DNA from: a virus
Virus genome (UHGV): UHGV-0187445
Length of the DNA stretch: 14,700 bases
Strand: one strand, 5' to 3'
Each line of letters opens with the position of its first letter. Position 1 is the stretch's first letter. The notes under the pieces are model-generated. The model had not been told where the DNA came from, did not search any database, and saw only the letters and a list, made by a program, of their open reading frames with translations. Positions 1 through 14,700 of the stretch are shown here, one piece after another. A program made the position numbers and the translations under genes.

Positions 1-122
1 GTCAGCGGCATAACGTCAGTAACGGATGGCGGCCAGTGAAAAATGGTGGCGATATCTGCCACCAGATCGTCAACCGTCAGGCTGTCGGTAAACCGGCAAG
101 CACCGACTTCTTCAACAAAAAA
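1..122 (-). CDS. E': E' extension of the E+E' tail assembly chaperone, copy 1 (partial; reached by -1 frameshift at slippery T TTT TTG, plus-strand 116..122); continues past window start
   Basis: Minus-strand -1 frame downstream of the heptamer is open to position 1 and encodes ...VADIATIFHWPP..., homologous to the copy-2 E' tail (...MADIAVIFHWRP...). Confidence 0.6.
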
Positions 123-379
123 GTGACAACCTCAACCGACATGGCAGTGAGATCTGCCGGGTCCATCTCTGCAATTTCCTGTGCAGTCAGTGCCGGACTG
201 GAGATGCGGGGGATCACGGTCATCATCGCGTTTACATCCATATCCATAATGGCCTGCAGGCGTGTACCGCGCAGCGCACCGGACTGCGGTTTACGCAGCA
301 CAATTTCGGTGATTTCTGTTTTACCGCGCTTGATGGGGGTATCCAGTTGAATGGTCTTTTCAGTCTGCTTATCGCTCAT
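77..379 (-). CDS. E: Phage tail assembly chaperone gpE (P2 E family), copy 1
   Basis: 100 aa ORF directly downstream of tube gene; contains in-frame ACT TTT TTG slippery heptamer near 3' end; position and size as P2 E. Confidence 0.85.
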   Translation of the reverse strand: MSDKQTEKTIQLDTPIKRGKTEITEIVLRKPQSGALRGTRLQAIMDMDVNAMMTVIPRISSPALTAQEIAEMDPADLTAMSVEVVTFLLKKSVLAGLPTA

Positions 380-433
380 TTTGCTGTCCTGTCAATTGGG
401 TTCTGGCGCGGTATCCCGCGCCGTTCAGATATA

Positions 434-949
434 TCAGAGGCCGAGGGCGTTGCGGTGCGCTTCCATCAGGTCCACACCGTCCACAATTTCCACCATGTTG
501 ATAAGGTCCACTTCATAGAGCACCTCACCATTGATGGTCAGCTTCGCGTAGCTGTTGGTACTGGTCACTTTGGTGGTGTTGCTTTCGCCCGTCTTCCACT
601 CGCCGGAATCCACTTCTTTGTGACGTCCACGCACGACAAGCTCCACGGCCTGCACTTCCCCGGTATCGTCACGCTGGATAGAGCCGGTAAAGCGCAGTTG
701 GATGCCATCCACCGTGGATTTGCCCATCTGCTTAAACAGCAGCAGTTCAGTACCACCAATGGAAAATTCTGTGTCCAGCGCACTGTCATCAAGCCCCAGA
801 TCCACATCCACCGCACCCGGCATTCCGCCGCCGCGATACTTCTCATATTTGCGGGTAAATTTCGGCAGCGTCAGCGACTCAACGATCCCCTGCCAGTTGT
901 TCCCGTCGTTAAACAGGTTCAGGTGTTTTAATTTGCGTGGTAAAGCCAT
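434..949 (-). CDS. FII: Phage major tail tube protein (P2 FII family), copy 1
   Basis: 171 aa, MALPRKLK... N-terminus and ...HRNALGL C-terminus typical of P2 FII; immediately downstream of sheath gene. Confidence 0.9.
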   Translation of the reverse strand: MALPRKLKHLNLFNDGNNWQGIVESLTLPKFTRKYEKYRGGGMPGAVDVDLGLDDSALDTEFSIGGTELLLFKQMGKSTVDGIQLRFTGSIQRDDTGEVQAVELVVRGRHKEVDSGEWKTGESNTTKVTSTNSYAKLTINGEVLYEVDLINMVEIVDGVDLMEAHRNALGL

Positions 950-958
950 GTTGTCCCC

Positions 959-2131
959 TTACGCGCTGACCTGGCTGGCGAAATTCACCAGGTACTGATC
1001 GGTGATGCGCTGACGCAGCATCAGGTTTTCAAGTGGCGGCACTGGCGTGTAGTCGTAGTCGATGGTGAGTTTTCCGGCTTTCAGCGTGTCTTTGTCGTTC
1101 ACCGACTCATCCAGCCAGCAATCACCACCAATGAGATAGCCCTGACTGACCAGGCTGCGCATTTTGGCGCGGATGCCCTCGATAATGTCGCGCGCCAGCG
1201 ACGGGTTCAGCGGTTTGTCCACTGCCCACATGTGTGCTTCTGCCATCGTGTCCATCAGCACCTGCGCCGTGCGGGTGTAGTTTTCGAAGGCAAAGAGCGG
1301 GTCATCACTCAGGCAGCGGGAACCCCAGAAGCGGAAACCGTCTTTGCGGATAAGGGTGGTGACGTCGTTCTGGTTCAGCAGTCCAGCATCGGTTGCCGTG
1401 TCCTGCAGATCCCAGAACACATCAGCAGAAATTCCAGTGACACCGTTAACGCCCACATTGGACAGGCTTTTGTGCCATCCGGTCTGCTCGTCAATTTTGG
1501 CGCGCAGACCAAGCGCACGAGCGGTGGCATATGCCGTTGCTTCGGCATTCAGCACCGTGTCCCAGCCAGTAAAGTCAGGCCAGATCAGCATCCCTTCGCG
1601 CTGGCTGAAGTTTTCGCGGTAAGTGATCGCCTCCTGCACTGTCTTGCAGCCATACGCTGACAGGTAAGCAAATCCACGCAGGCTTTGCGCCACGCTCAGC
1701 AACTCAGTAGCCACCGCCTTGGTGTCGTGGCCTGGCACGCCGAGAATGCGCGGTTTAACGCCGAGCTGTGACTGGGCAGATAACAGGGCTTTCATACCTG
1801 TTTTTTTACCTTCAGCAGTCACTGCGCCGATGATATTGGTCGTGGTTTCGTCTTCCGTTTCACCCTGCGGCACACGCACAACAATGGTCACGGGTTTTGC
1901 CTGGTCAGCGATGGCATCCAGCGAACGGGCCAGAGTACCGGACTCACCCGCTTTACCGCTGGCAGTCAGCACATCAGTGATCAGCACGGGTTTATTAAGA
2001 GGAAACATTTTTGCATCGGCATCATCGCCCGTGCAGACCATACCCACGATGGCGGTGCTCACCGTGGTAATAGATCGGGTGCCTTCGTTGACTTCAACAA
2101 CGCGCACCCCGTGGTGGTAATCCTGAGCCAT
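959..2131 (-). CDS. FI: Phage contractile tail sheath protein (P2 FI family), copy 1
   Basis: 390 aa; ...DYHHGV...[13 protein letters not shown]...[12 protein letters not shown]... motifs typical of P2 FI; AGGAGG RBS 8 nt upstream of ATG at 2131. Confidence 0.9.
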
Positions 2132-2207
2132 AGTGGCGAACCTCCTGATTGGATTAGGCTTCGCCCTATGTTGAAGTGATTGTGCCTGACAAACAGCTAA
2201 ACGCAGT

Positions 2208-2225
2208 TGTGTCGTTATTCACACA
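2208..2225 (-). promoter_or_regulatory. TGT-N12-ACA dyad (P2 late-promoter Ogr/Delta-type activator site), candidate P_F of module 1
   Basis: TGTgtcgttattcacACA seen directly; centre about 85 bp upstream of FI(1) ATG. Confidence 0.5.
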
Positions 2226-2273
2226 AAATAACGGTATTTGTCTGCTTGCAGGGATAATCAACATAATGCTGAT

Positions 2274-2840
2274 TCAGGGGGATTCATTGATCTTATTTGC
2301 CGGAAATTTTCTATAAATGGTAGAAACGCCTACATCAAAAATCAGTGCAATACGCTGTCTTGATTCTCCGGCCTCGAGTAAACGCCCAATCTGTGCCCAC
2401 TGTTCGGTGGTCAACTTAGGACGGCGTCCACCTACTCTGCCTTTGGCACGAGCTGCAGCCAGCCCTGCCCTGGTACGTTCAACTATCAGTTCGCGTTCCA
2501 TTTCAGCCAGGGCACCCATGACATGAAAAAAGAAACGGCCCATTGGGGTACTGGTATCAATACTGTCAGTCAGGCTTCTGAAATTCACACCACGCTGGCG
2601 CAACTCTTCTATCAGCGTAACAAGATGCCGCATACTGCGCCCCAACCTGTCCAGCTTCCAGACAACCAGCGTGTCTCCTGCCGATAGTGTCCTGAGTAGT
2701 TTTTTCAGCCCCGGTCTGTCGGACTTAGTGCCACTGATTTTGTCCTCAAAAATCCGCTCACATCCCGCGCAGTTCAGTGCATTACGTTGCAAATCGGTGT
2801 TCTGGTCATTTGTTGACACGCGTACATAGCCAATAAGCAT
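2274..2840 (-). CDS. Serine DNA invertase (Hin/Gin/Pin/Cin family), invertase A
   Basis: 188 aa from ATG at 2840 (AGGGGG RBS 6 nt upstream; ORF track start 2846 is 2 codons further). MLIGYVRVSTNDQ catalytic-serine N-terminus, ...GRFFFHVMGALAEMERELIVERT... and C-terminal HTH region typical of the family. Confidence 0.9.
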   Translation of the reverse strand: MLIGYVRVSTNDQNTDLQRNALNCAGCERIFEDKISGTKSDRPGLKKLLRTLSAGDTLVVWKLDRLGRSMRHLVTLIEELRQRGVNFRSLTDSIDTSTPMGRFFFHVMGALAEMERELIVERTRAGLAAARAKGRVGGRRPKLTTEQWAQIGRLLEAGESRQRIALIFDVGVSTIYRKFPANKINESP

Positions 2841-2867
2841 GATCATCCCCCTGAATAAAAACCGGAG

Positions 2868-3389
2868 ATGATGCCAGTTAGCTGTTACCTCTGCATTTTC
2901 TTAAACGTTGGTTTAGGGGAAGGCTCTGCGCTGCCTGTTGGTGTGCCTGTTCCATGGCCTTCAGCCACACCGCCAACAGGCTGGCTGAAATGCAACGGTG
3001 CGGCTTTTTCTGCTGAAGATTACCCTAATCTGGCAAAGGCTTACCCGACGTTAAAATTGCCTGATTTACGCGGTGAGTTTATTCGTGGCTGGGATGGTGG
3101 AAAGGGAGTGGATAGTGGGCGAACTCTGCTTTCAGCACAAGGAGATGCTATCCGAAACATTACCGGGGTGGTTGGCTACAGTTCAATTGGCGATTCACAA
3201 GGGTTATTAGGATACGTGTCAGGGGCCTTTTCGGCTTCGGAGTCAAAAGCTCCCGCATTAAGTGGTGCATCAGCATCCGGGTATCAACGCTCCCTGTATG
3301 CGAATTTTAATGCTTCAGCCGTTGTCCCAACCGCAAATGAGAACCGCCCACGTAACATTGCCTTTAATTATATTGTGAGGGCTGCATAA
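2868..3389 (+). CDS. Tail fibre variable C-terminal cassette (tail-collar-type domain), lacking a constant N-terminal fibre region
   Basis: 173 aa; ...PVGVPVPWPS...GWLKCNGAAFSAEDYPNLAKAYP...LPDLRGEFIRGWD... and C-terminal ...NIAFNYIVRAA resemble Mu S / P1 S-type fibre C-termini; in-frame stop only 3 codons upstream of ATG (2856..2858). Confidence 0.75.
   Translation: MMPVSCYLCIFLNVGLGEGSALPVGVPVPWPSATPPTGWLKCNGAAFSAEDYPNLAKAYPTLKLPDLRGEFIRGWDGGKGVDSGRTLLSAQGDAIRNITGVVGYSSIGDSQGLLGYVSGAFSASESKAPALSGASASGYQRSLYANFNASAVVPTANENRPRNIAFNYIVRAA
2896..2921. repeat. hix/gix-like 26 bp recombination site, left (TTTTCTTAAACG TT GGTTTAGGGGAA; core TT at 2908..2909)
   Basis: Half-sites show 8/12 dyad symmetry around a 2 bp core; resembles Hin-family crossover sites; 55 bp from invertase A start. 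Confidence 0.65.
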
Positions 3390-3991
3390 TGGATAACGCT
3401 GTATTAAATAGCGAGATTATTGCCACGAAGGCAGGGAATATTACCGTCTATAACTATGATGGTGAAATACGGGAATATATTTCCACTTCAAATGAATATC
3501 TTGCCGTTGGTGTTGGTATCCCGGCATATTCCTGTTTAGATTCACCAGGCACATATAAGGCTGGTTATGCTATCTGCCGTTCTGCAGATTTTAACTCATG
3601 GGAATATGTGCCAGACCATCGCGGTGAAATCGTCTATAACACCGAAACGGGAGAAGCCAAAGAAATCACAACTCCGGGTGATTACCCTGAAAATACAACC
3701 ACTATCGCCCCGTTAACGCCATACGATAAATGGGATGGTGAGAAATGGGTGACCGATACTGAGGCACAGCACGGCGCAGCAGTAGATGCAGCAGAAGCAC
3801 AGCGCCAGTCGCTGATTGATACTGCAATGGCCTCCATCAGTCTGATTCAACTGAAATTACAGGCCGGACGGAAGCTGACGCAGGCAGAAACAACCCGCCT
3901 TAACACTGTGCTGGATTACATTGACGTGGTGACGGCAACAGATACCAGCACAGCGCCGGACGTCATCTGGCCTGAACTGCCGGAGGCGTAG
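3389..3991 (+). CDS. Tail fibre assembly chaperone (Tfa/U family)
   Basis: 200 aa; start overlaps upstream stop (TAATG); C-terminal ...DVIWPELPEA motif typical of Tfa proteins. Confidence 0.8.
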   Translation: MDNAVLNSEIIATKAGNITVYNYDGEIREYISTSNEYLAVGVGIPAYSCLDSPGTYKAGYAICRSADFNSWEYVPDHRGEIVYNTETGEAKEITTPGDYPENTTTIAPLTPYDKWDGEKWVTDTEAQHGAAVDAAEAQRQSLIDTAMASISLIQLKLQAGRKLTQAETTRLNTVLDYIDVVTATDTSTAPDVIWPELPEA

Positions 3992-4403
3992 GCCATTCAA
4001 TATCTGGCGCACCGGAAGTATCGACCAGTTCCAGTGCGTACAGATAATCCAGCCACAAATTATATTGCGCCAGTTCCTCACCTTTCAGGCGACAAATCGC
4101 CGCTTTACCAGCCCATTGTCTACTGTTCATATAATCGTTGGCCTGATTAATCAATTGCTGCTTTTTAGTTTCGACTGATGCAATTTGTTCTTCACGTGTT
4201 GGCGGTGGAACATCTGCCCATGCTGGCATTCCATCGTCTCCGGTAATTCTGTACTTACCGTCAGGCGGCGTATCATGGAAATATTCCCTGAAAATAGCTT
4301 CGTCTATATCCACGCCTTTACCTTCGGGCCATTGGCCTTTTGCAGCGTAAACAGACTGGAGGGCATAAGGGTACGCCAGATTATCAACATACAAATATTT
4401 CAT
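3963..4403 (-). CDS. Alternative tail fibre assembly chaperone (Tfa/U' family)
   Basis: 146 aa; C-terminal ...DIEWPTPP... motif; convergent with and overlapping the other tfa by 29 bp. Confidence 0.8.
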   Translation of the reverse strand: MKYLYVDNLAYPYALQSVYAAKGQWPEGKGVDIDEAIFREYFHDTPPDGKYRITGDDGMPAWADVPPPTREEQIASVETKKQQLINQANDYMNSRQWAGKAAICRLKGEELAQYNLWLDYLYALELVDTSGAPDIEWPTPPAVQAR

Positions 4404-4405
4404 AA

Positions 4406-4735
4406 TTAACGCCCTTTCGCGTAGAAGGCTCCACCTTCAAAGCCATAGTTACAATGAGCAACGAAACCTGTTTTCGTCCAGTTAGTTGCGCCCCACATAT
4501 TCCCACCACCAAAACCGCCGTCATATACAATCACTACGTCTGGCTCCTGCGTAAAAGGAATGGTGAAAGTCACATTTGTAGATACCGCCGCGGCGTTATT
4601 CGGGAAATTAATTCTTCCCCACTGTTCAATTGAACCATCAGGCAATTTTTGCCAGCCAGATCCTGATGAATAAGCTGACATATCAGGTATCTGATTTTCC
4701 CCTGTTCCCACATTCCGTTTTGCCGCTTCTCCCAA
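4406..4735 (-). CDS. Alternative tail fibre variable C-terminal cassette (no ATG; ORF-track start is TTG; frame open only to 4759)
   Basis: 109 aa C-terminal glycine-rich fibre tip; N-terminus (..CIFKNVGLGE..) is encoded by the right crossover site and matches the left cassette's CIFLNVGLGE; stop at 4760..4762 immediately outside. Confidence 0.7.
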   Translation of the reverse strand: MGEAAKRNVGTGENQIPDMSAYSSGSGWQKLPDGSIEQWGRINFPNNAAAVSTNVTFTIPFTQEPDVVIVYDGGFGGGNMWGATNWTKTGFVAHCNYGFEGGAFYAKGR

Positions 4736-4752
4736 ACCAACGTTTTTGAAAA
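4727..4752. repeat. hix/gix-like 26 bp recombination site, right (inverted copy; core AA at 4739..4740 on plus strand)
   Basis: Reverse complement reads TTTTCAAAAACG TT GGTTTGGGAGAA, matching the left site at 22 of 26 positions; 54 bp from invertase B start. Confidence 0.65.
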
Positions 4753-4806
4753 TGCATAATTATTAGCCGAATGGCATGATTTATCGTTTTAAAGGAATGA
4801 AAAACC

Positions 4807-5388
4807 ATGCTTATTGGATATGTGCGCGTATCAACAAATGACCAGAACACGGCTTTGCAACGTGATGCGCTTGAGCGGTCAGGATGTGAGCTAATTTTTG
4901 AAGATAAAATGAGCGGGAGAACAGCGGAAAGGCCAGGGCTTAAAAAATTACTAAAGCGCCTTTCTCCAGAAGATACGCTTGTTGTCTGGAAGCTGGATCG
5001 TCTTGGGCGGAGTATGCGGAACTTGGTCATTCTGGTGGAGGAACTAAAGCAACGTTCCGTGAACTTCCGCAGCCTGACTGACAGTATTGATACCTCAACA
5101 CCAATGGGGCGTTTCTTTTTTCATGTTATGGGAGCACTGGCAGAGATGGAGAGAGAATTGATTGTCGAGCGTACGCGTGCAGGACTGGTGGCCGCTCGCG
5201 CGCAGGGAAGGATCGGCGGTAGACGTCCAAAACTAACACCAGAACAATGGGCGCAGGCGGGTAGGTTAATAGCGGCAGGGGAATCGCGCCGGAGGGTTGC
5301 CATAATTTATGATGTTGGGATATCTACGCTTTACAAAAAATTCCCAGCGACCAGAGATAAGAATTCCGGCACGCATGGCCGGTTATAA
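4807..5388 (+). CDS. Serine DNA invertase (Hin/Gin/Pin/Cin family), invertase B
   Basis: 193 aa; AAGGAA RBS; about 80% amino-acid identity by eye to invertase A, in opposite orientation. Confidence 0.9.
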   Translation: MLIGYVRVSTNDQNTALQRDALERSGCELIFEDKMSGRTAERPGLKKLLKRLSPEDTLVVWKLDRLGRSMRNLVILVEELKQRSVNFRSLTDSIDTSTPMGRFFFHVMGALAEMERELIVERTRAGLVAARAQGRIGGRRPKLTPEQWAQAGRLIAAGESRRRVAIIYDVGISTLYKKFPATRDKNSGTHGRL

Positions 5389-5472
5389 CCGTGCTGGCCG
5401 TGTGTATCGAGTACGGTCACTTTTAACGGTGCTGTAGCACGGTCAGTTATGGTGGTGTATTACGGAAGACGA

Positions 5473-5496
5473 AGCGGGCAATGGCCCGCTTTTCTT
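5473..5496 (+). terminator. Rho-independent terminator hairpin (AGCGGGC-aatg-GCCCGCT followed by TTTTCTT), overlapping the stop codon of U on the other strand
   Basis: 7 bp GC-rich stem plus T-tract seen directly; lies between convergent invertase B and U. Confidence 0.6.
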
Positions 5497-5944
5497 ATAT
5501 CGAAAGGTTGGTTTTCACCAGAGAGAAGAGATCGTCGGTAGTGGTTTCAGCCAGCTTTTCCCGTATGTCCTCGCTTACCCGTTTCAGGTTGAGCGTGAAA
5601 TCAATTTTCTTTGCCTTCCCGTCCTTAAAAAACTCCGTCCGGTTTTGCGTGATCTGCTCAATTACATACATGCCGTAGATCCTGCCCGTGCCTTCTATCA
5701 GGGGCCACGGGCGCCCGGAAAAAGCCATAGTTTCCAGCATGACAAGCGACACATCACCGCCGCTTATTTCGGGGTACAGCGTGCCGCTGAGTACGAACGG
5801 TTCTTCATCTGCGCCGATGAACTGATAGCGCGGGGATTTCCCCACGCGATCGTTTTTGACGTGCCGCCAGGAGTTGGTTTTATTCGCACTCTGGTAAGGT
5901 GTGGTTTGCAGTGAAAAGGGGAACATCCCCAGAATCATCATCAT
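5495..5944 (-). CDS. U: Phage tail protein gpU (P2 U family), module 2
   Basis: 149 aa; MMMILGMF... N-terminus and ...WPLIEGTGRIYGMYVIEQ... typical of P2 U; directly downstream of T. Confidence 0.85.
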   Translation of the reverse strand: MMMILGMFPFSLQTTPYQSANKTNSWRHVKNDRVGKSPRYQFIGADEEPFVLSGTLYPEISGGDVSLVMLETMAFSGRPWPLIEGTGRIYGMYVIEQITQNRTEFFKDGKAKKIDFTLNLKRVSEDIREKLAETTTDDLFSLVKTNLSI

Positions 5945-5953
5945 GATATTGCC

Positions 5954-8881
5954 TTAGACGTGATCGGTCAGTTGGGAGCGCTTGCGCCGGTCGGCCTGTT
6001 GCTTCGCTAACGCAAGTTCTTCGCGCACGCGCCTGATAATGGTTTCTTCATCCAGTTTCTGGCCGCTAAAGTCGAAGTTAAGGTTATATACATCGCCACC
6101 CGGAGCAGGCATCAGCGCAGCGACGGAAGCCGCAGACGGAGACGCCGAAACAGGCATCCGTGCGGCGGGCTTCTCAACCTGCCAAGGCGTAACGGAAGCG
6201 ATCAGCGATCCGGCCTGCTGCGTCACCCAATCGGTAAGGGATGGTAGCTGGCGCTGCGCCTGCTTAAGCGGTTCCGAATATCCGCCACGGATCGGGATAT
6301 AGGGCTGCTTATTCTTGAAGACAATTTCGCCGGGGCCGTCTTTCTTCTCCGTGGTATTGGTGGCGATCTTGTCCAGGCTGTTGCTCATCTTCGGCACGAT
6401 GTTGGCCGGGCCTTTGAGCGAGTTAATCAGGTTGTCCTGTTTCTTCTGCTCATCGGTTTTCTTTTTCTCTTCGGCTTTTTTGCTTTCCTTCGCGACTGCC
6501 TGCACGTCACCGGAAAAGGCGTTAACCCGGTCTGCCAGATTGTTTACCGCTTCCGGCGTCATTTGCTGCGCAACCTGCTGCGCTGCTTTCGCTGCGTCGG
6601 GAATGGCGCCCAGCTTTTCCAGAATCCAGCCCAGCCCTTTGGCTACGGCCTGAATGGGAAGCGTCAGCGCGCTGATTGCGGCCCCAACCACCTTACCGAA
6701 GGTTTCCCCTGCACTGGTGCAGGATGCCAGCGCTTCACTGGAAAACTGGATCGGCTCCAGTAGTTTGGTAAACCATTCCCAGACGCCGCTGATCGCGTTG
6801 CCGATACTGTTAAAAATCGGGGCCAGTGGTGCGAATACGGCGTTAAACGACTGCGTTATTGGTTGAAGGCCAGCCATCAGACCGGTAAAGAAGCCGCTGA
6901 AAAATGCCTTAATCGGTTGCCAGAATTTAATTACGGCCACTGCTACCGCAGCAAAGAGAGCAATCAGCCCCCAGACGGGCGCAGAAATGCCAGCCAGTAG
7001 CGTGATAAGCGGGCCGAATACCATGCGACCGGCGCTTAACAATGCCTGCATAGGCGAGCCAGCAAGCCACTGGAACGCACCACCCAGGCGCATTACTCCG
7101 CCAGTCAGACGCGCTATTCCTCCTTCCCCGGCCAGCGAGGTGAAGCTGAGGCGAACAAGTGCCATTGGGCCAAGTACTGCGCCGATGGACAGCATCAGGC
7201 CACCCATGACAACCAGCAAAGCGCCTATGGCTGCGGTGACTTTCATGATTGAACCAACCAGCGCTGGGTTTGCCTCCACCCAGCGGCGGACGCTGCCAAC
7301 CACCTTACTGACGGTAAGCATGATATCCATCAGCGGATCGCGAAGGGTTTCACCTGCTGAACTGAATGCGTTAACCGCGCCGGTTTTGGTCAGTTGCCAT
7401 TGAGCAGAAAGGGAAGCTTTATTGATATCAGACTCCCTATTCATGGAACCTTTAGCGGCTGCGCCCTGCGTCAGTTCTATCTGGCGGCGTAGTTCGGGCA
7501 GGTTGTTGGCAAGTTTCTGCGCATCATCGCCGAACTCTTTGCCAAAAATCTGGGTAAGGTTGGCTACCTGCTGATCCGGGGCCAGTTTTTTGGACGCTTC
7601 CAGCACTGAAATGATTGTGCCCATCGCGTCCACTGACATGCTCTTCTGAACTTTTTCGGCGCTGAGGCCGAGGGCGTCCAGACCCTGCATAAAGTTTTTG
7701 CCCTGAACCGTAGCGATTGAGAGTTCGCGCACCATTGCATTGGTGGCGCTGGCGGCAACTTCGGCAGGGGTGCCGAGCGTCAGAAAGGTGGAACCCAGCG
7801 CGGCGGCTTGCTTGTAATCCAGTTGGCTGGCAAGCCCACCAACGCGCTGGAGTACGTCGATAATATCGGAGCCTTTCGACTTCGCGTTATCGTCCAGGTA
7901 GTTTATGGCGTCGCCTAACTGTTCAATATTCTGGGTGGGGATTTTATACAGCCCGGCAATTTTCCCCAGGCTTTCAGAAAGCTGATCGGCGGGCAGTTCA
8001 AAGGCTACCGAAGCTTTTGCCGCCATGCTGGCAAAAGACAGCAGATCGGCTTTTTGCTTTTGCCAGGGATCATCGCTGTTTGCGACGCCCATACGCGCGC
8101 CGCCTTCGACCAGGGCGGCATAGTCAACAGCACCGTTAGCCATTGGCAGCTTTTCGCTGGCATCCATGATCGCCCGCTGCATTTCTTCATACTGCGGGGT
8201 GCGGTTGCCGCTGTCGTCACGTAAGCCATTTACCTGTTTGGCTACGCCCTTCATCGCGTCTTCGAGGCTGCTGTAGGATTTCACCGCAGCGGCGACAGGT
8301 ACGAGTGTTGCCGCCCCTACTGCGGCGGTTTTCATTCCCCCGCTCATCATCTTTTCGCCGGTTTCTTTGGCGCGGCTGTAACGGGCCTGCGCCTGGTTAA
8401 CAGCGTCAAGCCGTCGTTGCTGTTCAGCAAGCTGGCGGTTGTATTGCGCGGTGCGCTGGTTGATCTGTTCCGTCGCCCGGCTGGCGCTGCTGATCGCAAT
8501 GCCTTCGCTGTAGAAGCTGGCCCGCAACTGGTTAAGCTGCGTCTGCTCGCCTTTCTGCTGCTGGGTTAACTGGCGAATGGCTGCACGTTGCTGATTGAGG
8601 GCGGCAACTTGTTCGGCGCTGCGCTGGCGTAACGGGCCATAAGCCGCCGCCATTTGCCGGGCCTGTTCTTTCGCCTGGGCCAGTTGTTCGGTGGTTTTTT
8701 TATTGGCTGCGGTGAGGCGGTCAAAGCTGGTTGCCTGACGCTCAAGCCCTTTAATGCTGGTTTTAGTCTGGTTGATTTGAGACGCCAACGCGGCGGCACT
8801 CTGGCGCGCCGCGTTGACAGGGCGGGACATATTATTCAGGGCGCTGAATGCCACCCTGATATTTAAATTGCGGTCTGCCAT
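5954..8881 (-). CDS. T: Phage tail tape measure protein (P2 T family), module 2
   Basis: 975 aa; N-terminal coiled-coil-rich region, central hydrophobic segments, position between E' and U. Confidence 0.9.
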   Translation of the reverse strand: MADRNLNIRVAFSALNNMSRPVNAARQSAAALASQINQTKTSIKGLERQATSFDRLTAANKKTTEQLAQAKEQARQMAAAYGPLRQRSAEQVAALNQQRAAIRQLTQQQKGEQTQLNQLRASFYSEGIAISSASRATEQINQRTAQYNRQLAEQQRRLDAVNQAQARYSRAKETGEKMMSGGMKTAAVGAATLVPVAAAVKSYSSLEDAMKGVAKQVNGLRDDSGNRTPQYEEMQRAIMDASEKLPMANGAVDYAALVEGGARMGVANSDDPWQKQKADLLSFASMAAKASVAFELPADQLSESLGKIAGLYKIPTQNIEQLGDAINYLDDNAKSKGSDIIDVLQRVGGLASQLDYKQAAALGSTFLTLGTPAEVAASATNAMVRELSIATVQGKNFMQGLDALGLSAEKVQKSMSVDAMGTIISVLEASKKLAPDQQVANLTQIFGKEFGDDAQKLANNLPELRRQIELTQGAAAKGSMNRESDINKASLSAQWQLTKTGAVNAFSSAGETLRDPLMDIMLTVSKVVGSVRRWVEANPALVGSIMKVTAAIGALLVVMGGLMLSIGAVLGPMALVRLSFTSLAGEGGIARLTGGVMRLGGAFQWLAGSPMQALLSAGRMVFGPLITLLAGISAPVWGLIALFAAVAVAVIKFWQPIKAFFSGFFTGLMAGLQPITQSFNAVFAPLAPIFNSIGNAISGVWEWFTKLLEPIQFSSEALASCTSAGETFGKVVGAAISALTLPIQAVAKGLGWILEKLGAIPDAAKAAQQVAQQMTPEAVNNLADRVNAFSGDVQAVAKESKKAEEKKKTDEQKKQDNLINSLKGPANIVPKMSNSLDKIATNTTEKKDGPGEIVFKNKQPYIPIRGGYSEPLKQAQRQLPSLTDWVTQQAGSLIASVTPWQVEKPAARMPVSASPSAASVAALMPAPGGDVYNLNFDFSGQKLDEETIIRRVREELALAKQQADRRKRSQLTDHV

Positions 8882-9082
8882 TTAGTGATCTCCACCACTG
8901 CGCGCAGCCGCCTGATCACGCCATAACAGTATTTCCTGTACCGTCATGGCGTCCATCTCTACCGGCCGCCAGTGGAATATGACGGCGATATCTGCCATCA
9001 GGTCTTCTATGCGTTCGCAGGGGCATCGGATGATTCGTTGCCCGTATCCGTCGCGGTCAGATCCGAAGAGGGTTGCAAAAAA
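8882..9082 (-). CDS. E': E' extension of E+E' fusion, module 2 (-1 programmed frameshift at T TTT TTG, plus-strand 9076..9082); full E+E' spans 8882..9342
   Basis: Hand translation of the -1 frame from the heptamer gives a stop-free 66-codon tail (FATLFGSDRDGYGQRIIRCPCERIEDLMADIAVIFHWRPVEMDAMTVQEILLWRDQAAARSGGDH) ending at TAA 8882..8884, directly abutting the T start codon (TAAATG). Confidence 0.75.
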   Translation of the reverse strand, partial: FFATLFGSDRDGYGQRIIRCPCERIEDLMADIAVIFHWRPVEMDAMTVQEILLWRDQAAARSGGDH

Positions 9083-9342
9083 TCAACCACCGCGTTGGCT
9101 AGCTGGCAAAAATCCCAGGTATCCATACGGGCAATCTCATCGGCGGTTAGTGCCGGAGCGGTAACGCGGGGCAGCAGAATAACCAGCGCGTCATAGTTGG
9201 AAGTCAGCACGTCATAGGCTTTTAAGCCGCGCAGTGATCCAGCCTGTTTAAGCACGGAAGTGATCGCCACTTCGGTGATTTTGGTCTTACCGCGCGTAAT
9301 AGGGGCGGTAAGAATAACGGTGTTTTCTTTGGTTTTGCTCAT
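9007..9342 (-). CDS. E: Phage tail assembly chaperone gpE, module 2
   Basis: 111 aa; in-frame GAT TTT TTG heptamer 25 codons before the stop; downstream of tube gene. Confidence 0.85.
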   Translation of the reverse strand: MSKTKENTVILTAPITRGKTKITEVAITSVLKQAGSLRGLKAYDVLTSNYDALVILLPRVTAPALTADEIARMDTWDFCQLANAVVDFLQPSSDLTATDTGNESSDAPANA

Positions 9343-9356
9343 GGTGCCGGGTTTCC

Positions 9357-9872
9357 TTATAGGCCGATGTTAGCGCGGTGTTTTTCCAGCACATCCACAC
9401 CGGCAACTTTGTAGATCATGTTGAGCACATCAACTTCGATAATCTCTTCGCCGTTGATGGTCAGCTTGTAATAGGTGTTTTTCAGGGTGTACTTATGCGA
9501 AGTGTCATCCCCGACTTTTGCCGAACCGGGATCCAGTTCAGTGAAGCGGCCACGCGTCTGGATTTCGCACGGTACAGCGTCGCCGGTTGCGTCGTCCTGA
9601 TAGGAGCCAGCAAAACGTGTTTGCATCCCGTCCGCAGTGGTAACGCCCCATTTTTTCAGCAATCCGGCATCCAGACCGCCAAGCGTGATATCCATATCCA
9701 GGGCGCCAGCGTCGAAGCCAAGATCCACCGCAACCGAACCTGGCATACCACCCGCCTGGTAGTCTTCGGTTTTTTTGGTGAGTTTGGCGGGGGTGATTTC
9801 CGGCACCATGCCGAAGTAGTTATCCCCGTCAAAGAACATATTGAAATATTTGAGTTTCTTAGGCAGTGCCAT
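9357..9872 (-). CDS. FII: Phage major tail tube protein (P2 FII family), module 2
   Basis: 171 aa; MALPKKLKYFNMF... and ...HRANIGL; same length as module-1 FII but highly diverged. Confidence 0.9.
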   Translation of the reverse strand: MALPKKLKYFNMFFDGDNYFGMVPEITPAKLTKKTEDYQAGGMPGSVAVDLGFDAGALDMDITLGGLDAGLLKKWGVTTADGMQTRFAGSYQDDATGDAVPCEIQTRGRFTELDPGSAKVGDDTSHKYTLKNTYYKLTINGEEIIEVDVLNMIYKVAGVDVLEKHRANIGL

Positions 9873-9884
9873 AAGCGCCCCCGG

Positions 9885-11078
9885 TTAGTTATTCACTGCG
9901 CTGGAAAACGTAGCGAAATATTCGTCGGTGAACTCCTGTACCAGGCTGAGATTTTCCAGCGGTGGAACAGGGGTGTAGTTGTACTTAATGGTCAGTTGAC
10001 CATTGCGCAGGGTTTCCGAGGTATTCGGTTCCGGGTCATACCAGCAGCGGGCGCCCAGCAGCTTGCCAGCCGTCACGTATGAGGTCAGCTTCTTATTGAT
10101 GCCGTCCACAATGTCCTTTACCAGCGACGGGGTAAGCGGTTTATCAACATAGGCGAAATGGGCTTCGGCGACGGTATCCGCAACTATCTGCGCGGTTCGG
10201 GTATAGCTTTCGAAGATATACGTTTCCGCGTCGCAGGTACGCGATCCCCAGATGCGGTAGCCGTCCTGCTTGATCAGCGTGGTAACGCCTGCTGCGTTCA
10301 GTTCGTCGGCGTCGGTATCGGTGCCCTGCAACGTGAAATAGATATCCCGATCCATCCCCAGCACGTTATTAACGGGCACGTTGGAAATGGTTTTATGCCA
10401 GCCCTGCGTTGCGTCGATTTTGGCTCGCATCCCAACAGCATGGGCACCCACGGGCACGGTGGCATTAGCCCCGGCGTTGGTGTCGTAGCAGATGAAATTA
10501 GGCCAGATAACCATCATTTCACGCTGGGAGAATTGCTCGCGGTATTCCTTCACTTCGGCGATTGTGTTGCAACCGTTCGCTGCCACGTAAGCAAACGCGC
10601 GCAGCTTTTCGGCAATGACGCCGAGTTGTGCGGCTACCGCTTCCGTATCAAGCCCTGGAACAGCCAGTACACGCGGGCGCACACCTACGCGCATTTCGGC
10701 AGACAGCAGCGCGTACATGCCGGTAAAGCGCCCGTTTGCATCGGTGCCGCCAATAACCAGTTGATCCTGGGTCTGTGCGGTGCCGCCTTCTGGCGGTTCG
10801 ATATTTGCAGCATCAGCAACGCGGATCACAATGGTTTGCGGGCTGGTCTGGTCTGAAATCGCTTTCAGGGTGGTAAACAGGGTGCCGGTTTTACCTGCCT
10901 TGCCCAGCATGTTAGCCACGCGGGTAATCAGTACAGGGGTATCCAGCGGGAACGCTGTTTCGTCCGCATCATCAGCGGTGCAGACAACGCCGATCACCGC
11001 CGAATCAATGTCGGTGATCATCGTGCTAAGGTCGGTGGTTTCCGTGACGGTTACACCGTGATGGTAGTTAGTGGCCAT
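9885..11078 (-). CDS. FI: Phage contractile tail sheath protein (P2 FI family), module 2
   Basis: 397 aa; ...NYHHGV...TTLIKQDGYRIWG...[12 protein letters not shown]...; roughly half the residues identical to module-1 FI by eye. Confidence 0.9.
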   Translation of the reverse strand: MATNYHHGVTVTETTDLSTMITDIDSAVIGVVCTADDADETAFPLDTPVLITRVANMLGKAGKTGTLFTTLKAISDQTSPQTIVIRVADAANIEPPEGGTAQTQDQLVIGGTDANGRFTGMYALLSAEMRVGVRPRVLAVPGLDTEAVAAQLGVIAEKLRAFAYVAANGCNTIAEVKEYREQFSQREMMVIWPNFICYDTNAGANATVPVGAHAVGMRAKIDATQGWHKTISNVPVNNVLGMDRDIYFTLQGTDTDADELNAAGVTTLIKQDGYRIWGSRTCDAETYIFESYTRTAQIVADTVAEAHFAYVDKPLTPSLVKDIVDGINKKLTSYVTAGKLLGARCWYDPEPNTSETLRNGQLTIKYNYTPVPPLENLSLVQEFTDEYFATFSSAVNN

Positions 11079-11150
11079 GTATTTGCCTCGCCAGTTTAAT
11101 GACTGCGAATATCATTGCGGCAATGGCGGGCCGATGCGATGGATAAGGGT

Positions 11151-11168
11151 TGTCAGCAACCTGCAACA
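11151..11168. promoter_or_regulatory. TGT-N12-ACA dyad (P2 late-promoter activator site) between divergent FI(2) and D
   Basis: TGTcagcaacctgcaACA seen directly; centre about 81 bp upstream of FI(2) ATG and about 77 bp upstream of D ATG. Confidence 0.5.
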
Positions 11169-11235
11169 ATGACGGGGCGTTGTTCATGCGCGCGCGCGTG
11201 GCGACGATGTACCCCATCATGATGAAGGGGTTGAT

Positions 11236-12354
11236 ATGGACACGACAGAAAACCGATATTCGCCGCGCCCGGCGTTCAGTATTGAGATTGAAGGTAAGCA
11301 GCTTACGGCGCTGGATAACCGGCTGATCTCCCTTTCCCTGACAGATAACCGGGGCTTTGAAGCGGACACGCTGGATCTGACTCTGGATGATGCAGACGGG
11401 CAGGTAGCCTTACCATCACGCGGCGCAAAGATATCGGTGGCGCTGGGCTGGGATAATGATCCATTGGTTTTTAAGGGCGTGTATACGGTTGACGAGATCG
11501 GACACTCTGGCCCGCCTGACCAGCTAACGATCAGTGCCAGAAGCGCAGATTTCCGCGATACCTTTAACGTGAAGAGGGAATATAGCTGGCACGATATTAC
11601 CGTGGGGGATGTGGTTGCCAGCATTGCCAGCCGTTACGATCTGCGTGCGGGCGTCAGCGAAGAACTGGCGAAGATTGAGATAGATCACGCCGATCAGACG
11701 AGTGAATCAGATATCAGCTTCTTAACGCGCATGGCCGAAATGCTGGGCGCGGTGGCAACCATTAAAAACGGTATGCTTCTGTTTATCACGCCGGGCAAGG
11801 GAGTAACGCAGAGCGGCAAGCCGCTGCCGGTGATCGAGATAGTCCGGTCAAGCGGTGATAAACATCGGTTTAACGTAGCTGACCGCGACGCGTACACGGG
11901 CGTAACTGCATACTGGCTTGATCTCAACTTTGGCAAGAAACCATCCACTACCGTGAAGAAAACCACCCGCAGGCGACGAACCAGCCAGGCCAAAAAGAAA
12001 GAACCCGCATCAAGCAAAAAAGAAGGGGATTATCTGGCCGGGGCCGAAGGCAACGTTTTTGTTATCCGTAAAACCTTCAAGACGGAAAAGGCGGCAAAGC
12101 GTGCCGCAGCGGCTAAGTGGCGGGAGTTGCAGCGCGGGGCGGCTACGTTCAGCATCACCCTGGCGCGTGGGCGCGCGGATTTGTACCCGGAACAGCCAGC
12201 CAGTGTTTATGGGTTTAAGTCCACGATCGACAGTGGAAGCTGGACGATAACACGGTGCGTTCACGATGTTGGCGGGGGAGGGTTTACCACGTCGCTGGAA
12301 CTGGAAGTAAAAATCGACGACTGGACAGCGGAGAGTGACGATTCAACGTCTTAA
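11236..12354 (+). CDS. D: Phage late control / tail protein gpD (P2 D family)
   Basis: 372 aa; ...DLTLDDADGQVALPSRGAKISVALGW...GPPDQLTISARSADFRDTFNVKREYSW...DAYTGVTAYW... typical of P2 D; GAAGGGG RBS. Confidence 0.85.
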   Translation: MDTTENRYSPRPAFSIEIEGKQLTALDNRLISLSLTDNRGFEADTLDLTLDDADGQVALPSRGAKISVALGWDNDPLVFKGVYTVDEIGHSGPPDQLTISARSADFRDTFNVKREYSWHDITVGDVVASIASRYDLRAGVSEELAKIEIDHADQTSESDISFLTRMAEMLGAVATIKNGMLLFITPGKGVTQSGKPLPVIEIVRSSGDKHRFNVADRDAYTGVTAYWLDLNFGKKPSTTVKKTTRRRRTSQAKKKEPASSKKEGDYLAGAEGNVFVIRKTFKTEKAAKRAAAAKWRELQRGAATFSITLARGRADLYPEQPASVYGFKSTIDSGSWTITRCVHDVGGGGFTTSLELEVKIDDWTAESDDSTS

Positions 12355-12402
12355 GCGTTATACTTGCGTTGATATTAACCAGTCATGAAAGGAGGCCCGC
12401 GT

Positions 12403-12645
12403 ATGGCAATGCGCTGTCCTCGCTGCCGTGCTATAGCAAAAACCAGAACCAGCGTTGAGCTGAGTTTGCTTGTACGGCGCAGCTATCACCAGTGTCAAAA
12501 CATGTTATGCGGGTACTGTTTCACCAGCATGACGGAAATAGACGGTTCATTAAACCAGACCCAGCCAGCGCCCGGCGCGATGGTGCCACAAGAAGCTTTT
12601 CCACGAAGTCACCACGGCGAAGATCAGCTATCGCTGGCACTGTAA
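12403..12645 (+). CDS. ogr: Late-gene transcriptional activator, Ogr/Delta zinc-finger family
   Basis: 80 aa from ATG at 12403 (AAAGGAGG RBS 7 nt upstream); CPRC ... HQCQNMLC Cys4 motif matching the Ogr ...YHQCQN.C signature; follows D as in P2. Confidence 0.8.
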   Translation: MAMRCPRCRAIAKTRTSVELSLLVRRSYHQCQNMLCGYCFTSMTEIDGSLNQTQPAPGAMVPQEAFPRSHHGEDQLSLAL

Positions 12646-12647
12646 AA

Positions 12648-12676
12648 ATAACCCGCCTACATGGCGGGTTTCTTAT
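12648..12676 (+). terminator. Rho-independent terminator after ogr (ACCCGCC-tacat-GGCGGGT then TTCTTAT)
   Basis: Hairpin plus U-rich tract seen directly, 5 nt after ogr stop. Confidence 0.6.
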
Positions 12677-12734
12677 ACCTGTTACCCCTGATATTATTTT
12701 TCAACTTTCACAGTGGTGCTTAAAAGGTAGGGAT

Positions 12735-13118
12735 ATGAAAAAGTTAATCATGGTACTTGCGCTGTTTAGCCTTGTTGGATGTAAGCCCGGTGCTGATAAA
12801 GCGGTTGAGTTGGGGCAGAAAGAAGTTGCTTCAAGTATGCGCGATCCTGATAGCGCGAAATTCAGGTATGTACGTTTTGTTCAGAAAGACGAAGCTGCTG
12901 ATGGTGCTGTTGTCGGTTACGTCTGCGGGCAGGTAAACGCCAAAAATGCGTTTGGTGCGTATGCTGGTTTTGCACCTTTTGAAATGGAATTGTCGATGAA
13001 GTCGAAGGGGTTCTTCTCAAAAGGGGTAACTTACTCTGTATTTAACAAGCAACTGTATTCAGACCCAGGACAGGTAAACATGGCCGAATATACGAAGAAG
13101 TGCGGCCCTGATCAATAG
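12735..13118 (+). CDS. Small lipoprotein of unknown function (signal peptide with lipobox LVGC); candidate prophage cargo
   Basis: 127 aa from ATG at 12735 (GGTAGGG RBS); MKKLIMVLALFSLVGC lipoprotein signal; no family recognised by eye. Confidence 0.65.
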   Translation: MKKLIMVLALFSLVGCKPGADKAVELGQKEVASSMRDPDSAKFRYVRFVQKDEAADGAVVGYVCGQVNAKNAFGAYAGFAPFEMELSMKSKGFFSKGVTYSVFNKQLYSDPGQVNMAEYTKKCGPDQ

Positions 13119-13145
13119 GTTAAGTTTTAGGCAAATGTTTGAATA

Positions 13146-13170
13146 GACCGGGCAGAAGCCCGGCTTTTTT
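13146..13170 (+). terminator. Rho-independent terminator after lipoprotein gene (GACCGGGC-agaa-GCCCGGC then TTTTTT)
   Basis: Perfect GC-rich hairpin plus T6 seen directly. Confidence 0.7.
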
Positions 13171-13261
13171 CTGTCGAAGTGTAGTCAAAATGTAGACGAA
13201 GATTAGAATAAATCCTTTTATTCCATTGTGTTACTGGCTGGATTTCTTCACCATCCCTGTC

Positions 13262-13290
13262 TTCCCCCACATGATGTGGGGGTTTTTTTT
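13262..13290 (+). terminator. Strong stand-alone rho-independent terminator (CCCCCAC-atgat-GTGGGGG then T8); no ORF upstream
   Basis: Hairpin plus T8 seen directly, about 90 bp after the previous terminator and about 80 bp before fieF. Confidence 0.65.
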
Positions 13291-13371
13291 ATCCTCAATT
13301 TGCCTGCTGCTTAATGCATTGCAGATGATTTGCTTCCGTTATACTAGCGTCAGTTGATAGCGGGAGTATTT

Positions 13372-14274
13372 ATGAATCAATCTTATGGACGGCTGGTCAG
13401 TCGGGCGGCGATTGCTGCGACGGCGATGGCTTCGTTGCTATTGCTGATTAAAATTTTTGCATGGTGGTATACCGGGTCGGTGAGTATTCTCGCCGCGCTG
13501 GTGGATTCGCTGGTGGATATCGGCGCGTCGTTGACGAATTTACTGGTGGTGCGATATTCCCTGCAACCTGCCGACGATAATCACTCGTTTGGTCACGGTA
13601 AAGCTGAGTCCCTCGCGGCGCTGGCGCAAAGTATGTTTATCTCCGGTTCGGCACTATTCCTGTTTTTGACGGGTATTCAACATCTGATATCTCCAACACC
13701 GATGACAGATCCAGGCGTTGGGGTTATCGTGACAATTGTGGCGCTAATTTGTACGATTATCCTTGTCTCGTTTCAGCGTTGGGTGGTGCGGCGGACGCAA
13801 AGCCAGGCGGTGCGGGCTGATATGCTACATTACCAGTCTGATGTTATGATGAACGGTGCAATTCTGCTGGCGCTGGGGTTGTCCTGGTACGGCTGGCATC
13901 GCGCCGATGCTCTGTTTGCATTGGGAATCGGCATCTATATTTTATATAGCGCGTTACGCATGGGATATGAGGCGGTACAGTCATTACTGGATCGCGCATT
14001 GCCTGATGAGGAACGGCAAGAAATTATTGATATCGTGACTTCCTGGCCGGGTGTTAGCGGCGCTCACGATCTTCGCACGCGGCAGTCAGGGCCGACCCGC
14101 TTTATTCAGATTCATTTGGAAATGGAAGACTCTCTGCCTTTGGTTCAGGCACATATGGTGGCGGATCAGGTAGAGCAGGCTATTTTACGGCGTTTTCCGG
14201 GATCGGATGTGATTATCCATCAGGACCCCTGTTCCGTCGTACCCAGGGAGGGTAAACGGTCTATGCTTTCATAA
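13372..14274 (+). CDS. fieF: Ferrous-iron/zinc efflux cation diffusion facilitator FieF (YiiP)
   Basis: 300 aa from [13 protein letters not shown]...; recognised as E. coli FieF; ORF-track start at 13354 is an upstream in-frame extension. Confidence 0.93.
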
Positions 14275-14454
14275 TCAGTATAAAAGAGAGCCAGACCCGC
14301 ATTTTGTGTATAAAATACCGCCATTTGGCCTGACCTGAATCAATTCAGCAGGAAGTGATTGTTATACTATTTGCACATTCGTTGGATCACTTCGATGTGC
14401 AAGAAGACTTCCGGCAACAGATTTCATTTTGCATTCCAAAGTTCAGAGGTAGTC

Positions 14455-14700
14455 ATGATTAAGAAAATCGGTGTGTTGACAAGCGGCGGTGATGCGCCAG
14501 GCATGAACGCCGCAATTCGCGGGGTTGTTCGTTCTGCGCTGACAGAAGGTCTGGAAGTAATGGGCATTTATGACGGCTATCTGGGTCTGTATGAAGACCG
14601 TATGGTACAGCTAGACCGTTACAGCGTTTCTGACATGATCAACCGTGGTGGTACGTTCCTCGGTTCTGCGCGTTTCCCGGAATTCCGCGACGAGAACATC
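14455..14700 (+). CDS. pfkA: 6-phosphofructokinase I, N-terminal part (truncated by window end)
   Basis: [32 protein letters not shown]... recognised as E. coli PfkA; GAGG RBS. Confidence 0.93.

Follow-up and report, generated by a model that had tools for sequence, protein, structure and literature searches.

Flipping of invertible segments has been documented in P2-like prophages (PMC4272514), and fibre-segment switches have been described among three prophages within one ST131 lineage (bioRxiv 10.1101/2022.05.07.487787). Two P2-type families are relevant to the locus described here, and both place the invertible cassette between a fibre constant gene and an invertase gene. In the first family (hereafter prophage 1), represented by Escherichia phage 500465-1 (Wadgaonvirus) and the P2-like prophages at loci L007 and L012, the canonical P2 order is found: baseplate, fibre, cassette, invertase, FI, FII, E, T, U, D and ogr. 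In the second (prophage 2), the order is baseplate, fibre constant gene, cassette, invertase 2, an inverted FI-U block, D and ogr, a layout seen in loci L001, L002, L006 and L010, in ten contexts of invertase 2, in L031 and L032, and in Salmonella phage SEN5 (Senquatrovirus). In the window studied here, which is the whole 14,700-nucleotide stretch of UHGV virus genome UHGV-0187445, the cassette instead has a diverging invertase gene on either side, and both fibre constant genes are missing. The explanation we favour, with confidence somewhat short of even, is that the window is a very recent recombination joint of two intact P2-family prophages, formed by inversion within one E. coli chromosome.

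The cassette and the genes that adjoin it are arranged as follows.

2274-2840, minus strand: invertase 1 of prophage 1, a Gin/Pin/Hin-type serine recombinase of 188 amino acids (Resolvase and HTH_7)
2896-2921: left crossover site, TTTTCTTAAACG-TT-GGTTTAGGGGAA, with the central TT at 2908-2909
2922-3389, plus strand: alternative fibre C-terminus Sv, orphaned, with a Collar domain (PF07484)
3389-3991, plus strand: tail fibre assembly protein of Sv, 200 amino acids (PF02413)
3963-4403, minus strand: tail fibre assembly protein of Sv', 146 amino acids (PF02413)
4406-4735, minus strand: alternative fibre C-terminus Sv', gp53-like C (PF21882), also orphaned
4727-4752: right crossover site, TTCTCCCAAACC-AA-CGTTTTTGAAAA, with the central AA at 4739-4740
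4807-5388, plus strand: invertase 2 of prophage 2, 193 amino acids (Resolvase and HTH_7)

The 1.85-kb invertible segment between the two inverted 26-bp crossover sites holds two opposed sets, each comprising a fibre C-terminus and a fibre-assembly gene. As in Gin/Pin/Cin/Hin systems, both invertases combine Resolvase and HTH_7 domains with an intact catalytic serine motif, and the two inverted sites have a conserved core and an asymmetric central dinucleotide. Invertase 1, whose motif reads GYVRVSTNDQ, is 99% identical to that of L007; invertase 2 likewise retains its motif, and its gene points away from the cassette. A constant fibre gene reading into the segment, another hallmark of these systems, is present in all intact relatives and missing from the window. 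Sv corresponds to the C-terminus of a 433-amino-acid fibre protein in L006; the start of its open reading frame (ORF) at 2868 is fortuitous, and the constant fibre part does not lie upstream. The exact 200-amino-acid assembly protein is found in many prophage types.

The window records a single orientation state of the cassette, and both orientations are seen for prophage 2 (sister isolates 0H23 versus 0H26, and L006 versus L010). Judging by the two intact sites and the intact motifs of the two invertases, the cassette in the window probably still flips. Such flipping would be silent, because the fibre constant part that reads into the cassette is lacking.

Each side of the window closely matches a complete prophage. 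Positions 1-2922 are 99.08% identical to L007 and L012, where the match has the opposite orientation relative to the cassette, and 98.9-99.0% identical to phage 500465-1, so that module 1 may derive from Wadgaonvirus, judging by 2.9 kb at 98.9%. Positions 2903-13991 align without interruption to the intact fieF prophage L006 (99.89%), and positions 5297-13293 match SEN5 at 94% in one piece; module 2 is also 94% identical to SEN4, and it may derive from Senquatrovirus, judging by 8 kb at 94% identity and an identical layout. Invertase 2 lies between the cassette and U in all ten other contexts compared, and its exact protein occurs in many normal contexts.

Identity to prophage 1 extends as far as 2914, and from 2908 onwards the sequence matches prophage 2. 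This overlap inside the left crossover site defines a nominal exchange interval, TTGGTTT, that includes the central TT. The central TT is where serine invertases cut. Relatives of prophage 1 also carry the cassette, with 1-3 internal differences, and because the cassette is common to both prophage types, the true crossover could lie anywhere in 2908-4740; the differences at 4040, 4081 and 4094 are too few to assign a parent. A breakpoint at the right crossover site (4731-4743), considered on comparison with L001-L004, was dropped, since L006 shows the whole cassette in prophage 2.

All sites read outer-AAACS-TT-GGTTT-inner, and therefore any outer half can join any inner half. Alignment of sites from nine loci shows that inner half-sites move with the cassette and that outer half-sites stay with the host prophage. 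The left site of the window joins an outer half of the prophage 1 invertase-proximal type to the inner half of the cassette, and the outer half of the right site is of the prophage 2 invertase-proximal type. The crossover core pattern occurs three times in the window, compared with 0.46 expected.

Under the inversion model, a Senquatrovirus-type prophage 2 at its normal fieF site would keep its cassette, invertase 2, FI-U block, D, ogr, cargo gene and attR, and the inverted distal part of prophage 1 (invertase 1, FI, FII and E/E') would sit where the fibre constant and baseplate genes of prophage 2 should adjoin. Beyond the left end of the window, T, U, D and ogr of prophage 1 would presumably follow; the module 1 relative L017 continues into these genes. 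The joint could be produced by a single crossover in which the site next to the invertase gene of prophage 1 recombined with the site on the fibre side of prophage 2; the catalyst would be either Gin/Pin-type invertases acting between elements or RecA acting through the near-identical 1.85-kb cassette. A RecA crossover within the shared cassette would yield the same products. Because the sites would be inverted relative to each other, the chromosome between the prophages would flip, and the reciprocal joint expected elsewhere would consist of two convergent fibre genes with the other cassette between them. If the joint is real, both prophages would be split, and neither could excise or be packaged as a unit. 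The outcome would depend on the arrangement: inverted sites would give an inversion, a free circle of phage 1 a nested cointegrate, and direct sites a deletion. A more specific proposal, possible though doubtful, is that fibre invertases of co-resident prophages act between elements at a frequency that matters. The window would then capture a newly made half-exchange, a single crossover that linked a Wadgaonvirus-type prophage to one of the Senquatrovirus type at a crossover site, in a reaction that moves one identical cassette between at least five unrelated families and flips chromosomal stretches of up to megabase size.

Several considerations weigh against an inversion. The reciprocal joint and the left flank lie beyond the window, unseen, and each site junction taken alone is a normal flip state of one prophage, so that the sequence cannot tell a real crossover from an assembler walk through the shared cassette. 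This pair of prophages is joined in none of 5426 complete E. coli genomes. If prophage 1 occupied rcdA|ybjL, where it is most often found, an inversion would cover ~1.4 Mb of a single replichore, a change that would rarely be tolerated; judging from K-12 map positions, the orientation of rcdA|ybjL relative to fieF gives an inversion, and several rRNA operons would be turned head-on. Were prophage 1 at ssrA, its orientation would lead to a lethal deletion instead of an inversion. Moreover, wild-type Gin/Hin-type invertases strongly prefer nearby sites in cis.

When the whole window was compared with the 5426 complete genomes, no place covered more than 72% of it; the best match among GTDB representatives was 98%. 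Exact-protein look-ups found no copy of the arrangement, and the junction ORF was found only in two ~1-kb metagenome contigs. The exact FI1 protein was likewise found in only two metagenome contigs, at 98.2-98.5% DNA identity.

These results bear on a possible but unlikely explanation, which the initial annotation had named as a mis-assembly of two prophages, namely that the window is an assembly chimera. Two normal prophages would share the cassette, and the assembler would have entered it at the invertase 1 side and left it at the invertase 2 side, along a route in which cassette flipping links each cassette end to all four flanks in the reads. Both site junctions are the normal states of their respective prophages, as this explanation predicts, and a shared repeat is plausible, given that a near-identical cassette (1-3 internal differences) occurs in both prophage types in other strains. 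The total lack of decay fits a chimera as well as it fits a very recent event. The arrangement is absent from complete-genome and gene-index collections and may come from a draft or metagenomic assembly, and metagenome contigs L017 and L018, which carry module 1, break exactly at the invertase. However, assemblers usually break at such repeats and do not bridge them, and the architecture is real in complete genomes, where a reciprocal joint was verified in one strain (bR_120_Kylling) and a clade of 18 genomes appears to have inherited it.

These precedents come from a census of the complete genomes, for which the queries were invertase 1, cassette and invertase 2, and then a split query of invertase 1, 2500 N and invertase 2. 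A fibre cassette between two diverging invertase genes was found in 20 of the 5426 genomes, in three independent contexts. The complete genome of bR_120_Kylling (NZ_CP182374.1) has the order ybjL | ogr..FI-inv1 | cassette | inv3-FI..ogr | pflB (loci L113, 14001-17128, and L115, 20640-24400). Here, the same module 1 (99.0%) at the ybjL site is joined to the tail module of a P2-type prophage beside pflB. The reciprocal joint lies ~96 kb away and comprises the baseplate and fibre genes of prophage 1, a cassette, and the convergent fibre and baseplate genes of the other prophage; between the two joints, the host segment pflA..ybjL lies inverted. The two cassettes of this strain share 1 kb at 98%, and therefore RecA or an invertase could have acted. 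FDAARGOS_1287 is a second and different double-invertase case. Outside bR_120_Kylling, the double-invertase loci examined were L114 (12001-15182) and L118 (8931-11876). The remaining 18 are enterotoxigenic E. coli (ETEC)-type genomes. The one that was checked, TW10598, has a decayed pinE-cassette-pinE remnant beside the avs2 defence gene, and we take the other 17, on the basis of near-identical matches, to share one inherited event. The double-invertase architecture is thus real, rare and recurrent. Literature searches returned no description of invertase-flanked orphan cassettes.

A nested double lysogen would yield the same joint by integration. A circular phage 1 would have entered the resident prophage 2 at its cassette, through recombination by RecA or an invertase, and the whole of prophage 1 would lie backwards inside prophage 2 with a cassette on each side, the window being the right-hand joint. 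Such a cointegrate gives the order and orientation seen in the window, leaves the host chromosome untouched and avoids the cost of a megabase inversion. It is also consistent with the attachment of prophage 2 to fieF by a normal attR, with the ample homology offered by a 1.85-kb shared cassette, and with the continuation of module 1 relatives into T, U, D and ogr (L017). Nevertheless, we consider it improbable: no nested structure for this pair was seen among the 5426 complete genomes, phages normally integrate much more often through Int at their own site, reactions between molecules are disfavoured by wild-type invertases, and the sole verified precedent is an inversion.

The initial annotation regarded the region as either a rearranged tandem or poly-lysogen remnant or a degenerate tailocin-like element. 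The notion of a rearranged poly-lysogen comes close to the inversion that we favour, whereas a remnant or degenerate tailocin is not supported by the intact ORFs of the window and their 100% and 99% identity to complete prophages. In its most explicit form, the discarded part would invoke a deletion between direct sites of nearby prophages, with loss of head, baseplate and fibre genes. The window does hold only tail, invertase, D and ogr genes, and an old, decayed double-invertase remnant exists in the ETEC clade. Yet decay is absent here, as prophage 2 is 100% and module 1 99% identical to intact phages, and at both known sites of prophage 1 a deletion reaching fieF would take out over 1 Mb, with essential genes or oriC among the losses. 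A fixed remnant should also be inherited, and this one was found in no other genome searched; a tailocin, for its part, needs baseplate and fibres, neither of which is in the window. We therefore regard this origin as very unlikely.

The tail genes and the remaining features of the window are as follows.

1-62, minus strand: E' of module 1, a GpE-family frameshift ORF cut by the window edge, mapped from the GpE coding sequence at 19943-20062 of L003
77-379, minus strand: E1, tail assembly chaperone of module 1 (PF10109, E = 1e-18)
434-949, minus strand: FII1, tail tube of module 1 (PF04985, E = 1e-59)
959-2131, minus strand: FI1, tail sheath of module 1 (Phage_sheath_1, 1C and Gp18_domIII_N)
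2208-2225: candidate element of an Ogr-dependent late promoter, a TGT-N12-ACA dyad located 85 nt upstream of FI1
5468-5495: GC hairpin and T run between the convergent invertase 2 and U2 genes, likely a bidirectional terminator
5495-5944, minus strand: U2, tail protein (PF06995)
5954-8881, minus strand: T2, tape measure, 975 amino acids (PF10145)
about 8882-8998, minus strand: E'2, GpE family, mapped from the coding sequence at 13191-13307 of L002
9007-9342, minus strand: E2, tail assembly chaperone (PF10109, 23.1 bits, below the curated cut-off of 25)
9357-9872, minus strand: FII2, tail tube (PF04985)
9885-11078, minus strand: FI2, tail sheath (sheath domains)
11151-11168: candidate Ogr site shared by FI2 and D2, a TGT-N12-ACA dyad halfway between their divergent starts
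11236-12354, plus strand: D2, baseplate hub / late control D (PF05954)
12403-12645, plus strand: ogr2, late-gene activator (PF04606)
12735-13118, plus strand: cargo gene of prophage 2, 127 amino acids, with lipobox LVGC and no matching Pfam family
13119-13371: attR region; 100% identity to other prophage 2 copies stops at ~13143
13372-14274, plus strand: fieF, chromosomal (Cation_efflux and ZT_dimer; also annotated in L001)
from 14455, after fieF: start of pfkA, chromosomal

Every ORF in the window is intact. The two P2-type tail modules on one strand, joined through the invertible segment, that the initial annotation reported were found where it had placed them; D and ogr of module 2, which lie rightwards of its sheath gene and on the plus strand, extend that description. 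Module 2 has Pfam matches for FI, FII, E, T, U, D and ogr, which are the components of a P2-type contractile tail module. Within the window, module 1 is represented by FI, FII and E from Pfam matches and by E' from mapping, and its relatives carry T, U, D and ogr as well. L003 aligns to window positions 1-3100 at 98.5%, and the start of the tape-measure gene T1 would be expected immediately beyond the left edge of the window. An ORF and Pfam scan located no baseplate, constant-fibre or head genes within the window, in agreement with the annotation.

The divergence of the modules argues against a recent tandem duplication of one tail module. The modules share the same gene order on the same strand, and nothing else speaks for this origin, to which we attach almost no credence. 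The annotation had estimated by eye that sheath and tube are roughly half identical; amino-acid identity between modules 1 and 2 is 52% for FI, 50% for FII and 39% for E, and 79% for the invertases. At the nucleotide level, only patches of 64-72% can be aligned, and thus the modules are not near-identical and not products of a recent duplication. They are instead 94-99% identical to phages of different genera, and the proposal that two different P2-family phages are involved is borne out by the 99.0% match of module 1 to 500465-1 and the 94% match of module 2 to SEN4 and SEN5.

Another expectation of the initial annotation proved misplaced. Baseplate genes had been expected upstream of the sheath genes, which is wrong for module 2, whose FI-U block is natively on the opposite strand; intact relatives of prophage 2 have their baseplate and fibre genes on the far side of the cassette. 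The position of the FI-U block on the strand opposite to D and ogr is native to the family, and this native inversion is the only reason that both tail modules share a strand here. The same-strand layout is thus coincidental, arising from a native inversion together with a rearrangement. That the FI-U block is itself a rearrangement was ruled out on the same grounds. A search for flanking inverted repeats or crossover sites around this block yielded only a weak core match inside U. This third, imperfect match to the crossover core, AAAGGTTGGTTT at 5503-5514, lies at the 3' end of U2, beside invertase 2; no partner was found for it at the other end of the FI-U block, and it is probably due to chance.

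Each sheath gene has a TGT-N12-ACA dyad ~80 nt upstream (2208-2225 and 11151-11168). TGT-N12-ACA is an element of Ogr-dependent P2 late promoters. The number of such dyads in the window is not above chance, and it is their position that is suggestive. Since each tail operon has its own Ogr-type dyad upstream, both are probably still inducible. In the Senquatrovirus layout, FI and D diverge from one 157-nt intergenic region with a single dyad at its centre, and the dyad at 11151-11168 may be one Ogr site that serves two late promoters.

The module 1 type is common: at least 80% of the module is covered in 686 of the 5426 genomes. One tail module (99% identical) is present in P2-like prophages at ssrA (L116) and at rcdA|ybjL (L117, L003 and L007), which have opposite orientations relative to the chromosome. 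Its association with different integration sites means that the module alone does not fix the genus, and that tail and integration modules assort independently.

The prophage 2 tail module is uncommon, occurring in 31 of the 5426 genomes. Positions 4753-13143 show 100% identity to copies from strains that differ in their fieF alleles; the first mismatches appear at 13144, and the fieF/pfkA flank of those strains (13144-14700) differs at 8-10 positions. Complete prophage identity despite differing fieF flanks points to a recently spreading intact phage, not a remnant. The spread of this Senquatrovirus-type phage through different E. coli backgrounds is very recent. In fieF prophages, the slot that separates ogr from attR holds cargo that varies by strain. 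In the window it is occupied by the 127-amino-acid putative lipoprotein, whose gene is also carried by SEN5, and in L031 (14386-15362) and L032 (14613-15326) by a zinc-ribbon protein and TagO, or by an unrelated ORF.

The cassette is shared far beyond these two families. Comparison of cassettes from L005-L013 (about 9515-11365) revealed at least five unrelated prophage families that carry the 1.85-kb segment with 99.7-99.8% identity; these are Wadgaonvirus-like, Senquatrovirus-like, BcepMu-like, Mu-like, and one with P22-type regulatory genes. In each of the five, cassette homology stops inside the crossover sites, so that flanking homology cannot explain the shared cassette, which argues for natural site-specific exchange between elements. 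A BcepMu-like tail cluster with the same cassette and invertase occurs in three contexts, near ppc, inside mscM and inside dgcI (L005, L008 and L013). These contexts were set aside as evidence of inversions, as they look like insertions of transposable BcepMu-type phages.

A real joint would show how a 26-bp host-range switch site allows two prophages to inactivate one another and to reorganise the chromosome of their host. The window would then be an intermediate of cassette exchange between unrelated phages, and would suggest a mechanism for the long-known horizontal spread of tail-fibre genes. Should co-resident invertases often act between elements, host-range cassettes would move among families, with chromosome flips as a by-product. 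The census suggests that such events are an infrequent yet recurring cause of structural variation in E. coli. The joint might be an artefact, in which case shared invertible cassettes would be a trap for assemblers and prophage callers, which would report two 'incomplete' tail-only prophages.

Set beside its nearest relatives, the right side of the window resembles SEN4, SEN5 and the fieF prophages of E. coli, in which U, T, E', E, FII and FI lie on one strand and D, ogr and a cargo gene on the other. SEN5 differs in having a non-invertible fibre region without an invertase, and the window differs from the whole family in carrying another phage's tail module in place of the baseplate and fibre genes before the cassette. 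The left side resembles 500465-1 and the prophages at rcdA|ybjL and ssrA, to which positions 1-2922 are 98.9-99.2% identical and with which the order of cassette, invertase, FI, FII, E and E' is shared. In that group, however, fibre constant and baseplate genes precede the cassette, whereas the window has a second invertase there.

The cassette itself conforms to the Gin/Pin/Cin/Hin segments (Mu G, e14 P and P1 C) in its GYVRVST serine invertase, its 26-bp inverted sites with an AAACC-AA-GGTTT-type core, and its two opposed sets of fibre C-terminus and assembly gene. Unlike those segments, it has an invertase gene on each side and lacks a constant fibre gene, and its flipping cannot switch any fibre. 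R-type tailocins (pyocin R2 and carotovoricin Er) also have a P2-type sheath, tube, tape measure, U and D, and carotovoricin, as noted in PMC4272514, also has an invertible fibre segment. However, the baseplate, fibre constant and lysis genes of tailocins are absent beside the tail modules of the window: V, W, J, I, a fibre constant gene and lysis genes are all missing from it, and it is therefore not a self-sufficient cluster. Close relatives of both of its halves are complete phages with capsid genes.

The rearranged locus of bR_120_Kylling has the same module 1, a cassette between two invertases, and a second P2-like tail module. It is distinguished from the window by its partner, a classical P2-type prophage at pflA|pflB that lies ~62 kb of host DNA away, and by its tail modules, which diverge. 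All components of the window belong to families already known, and the mechanism, too, is of a familiar type; their joint is unique among the genomes searched.

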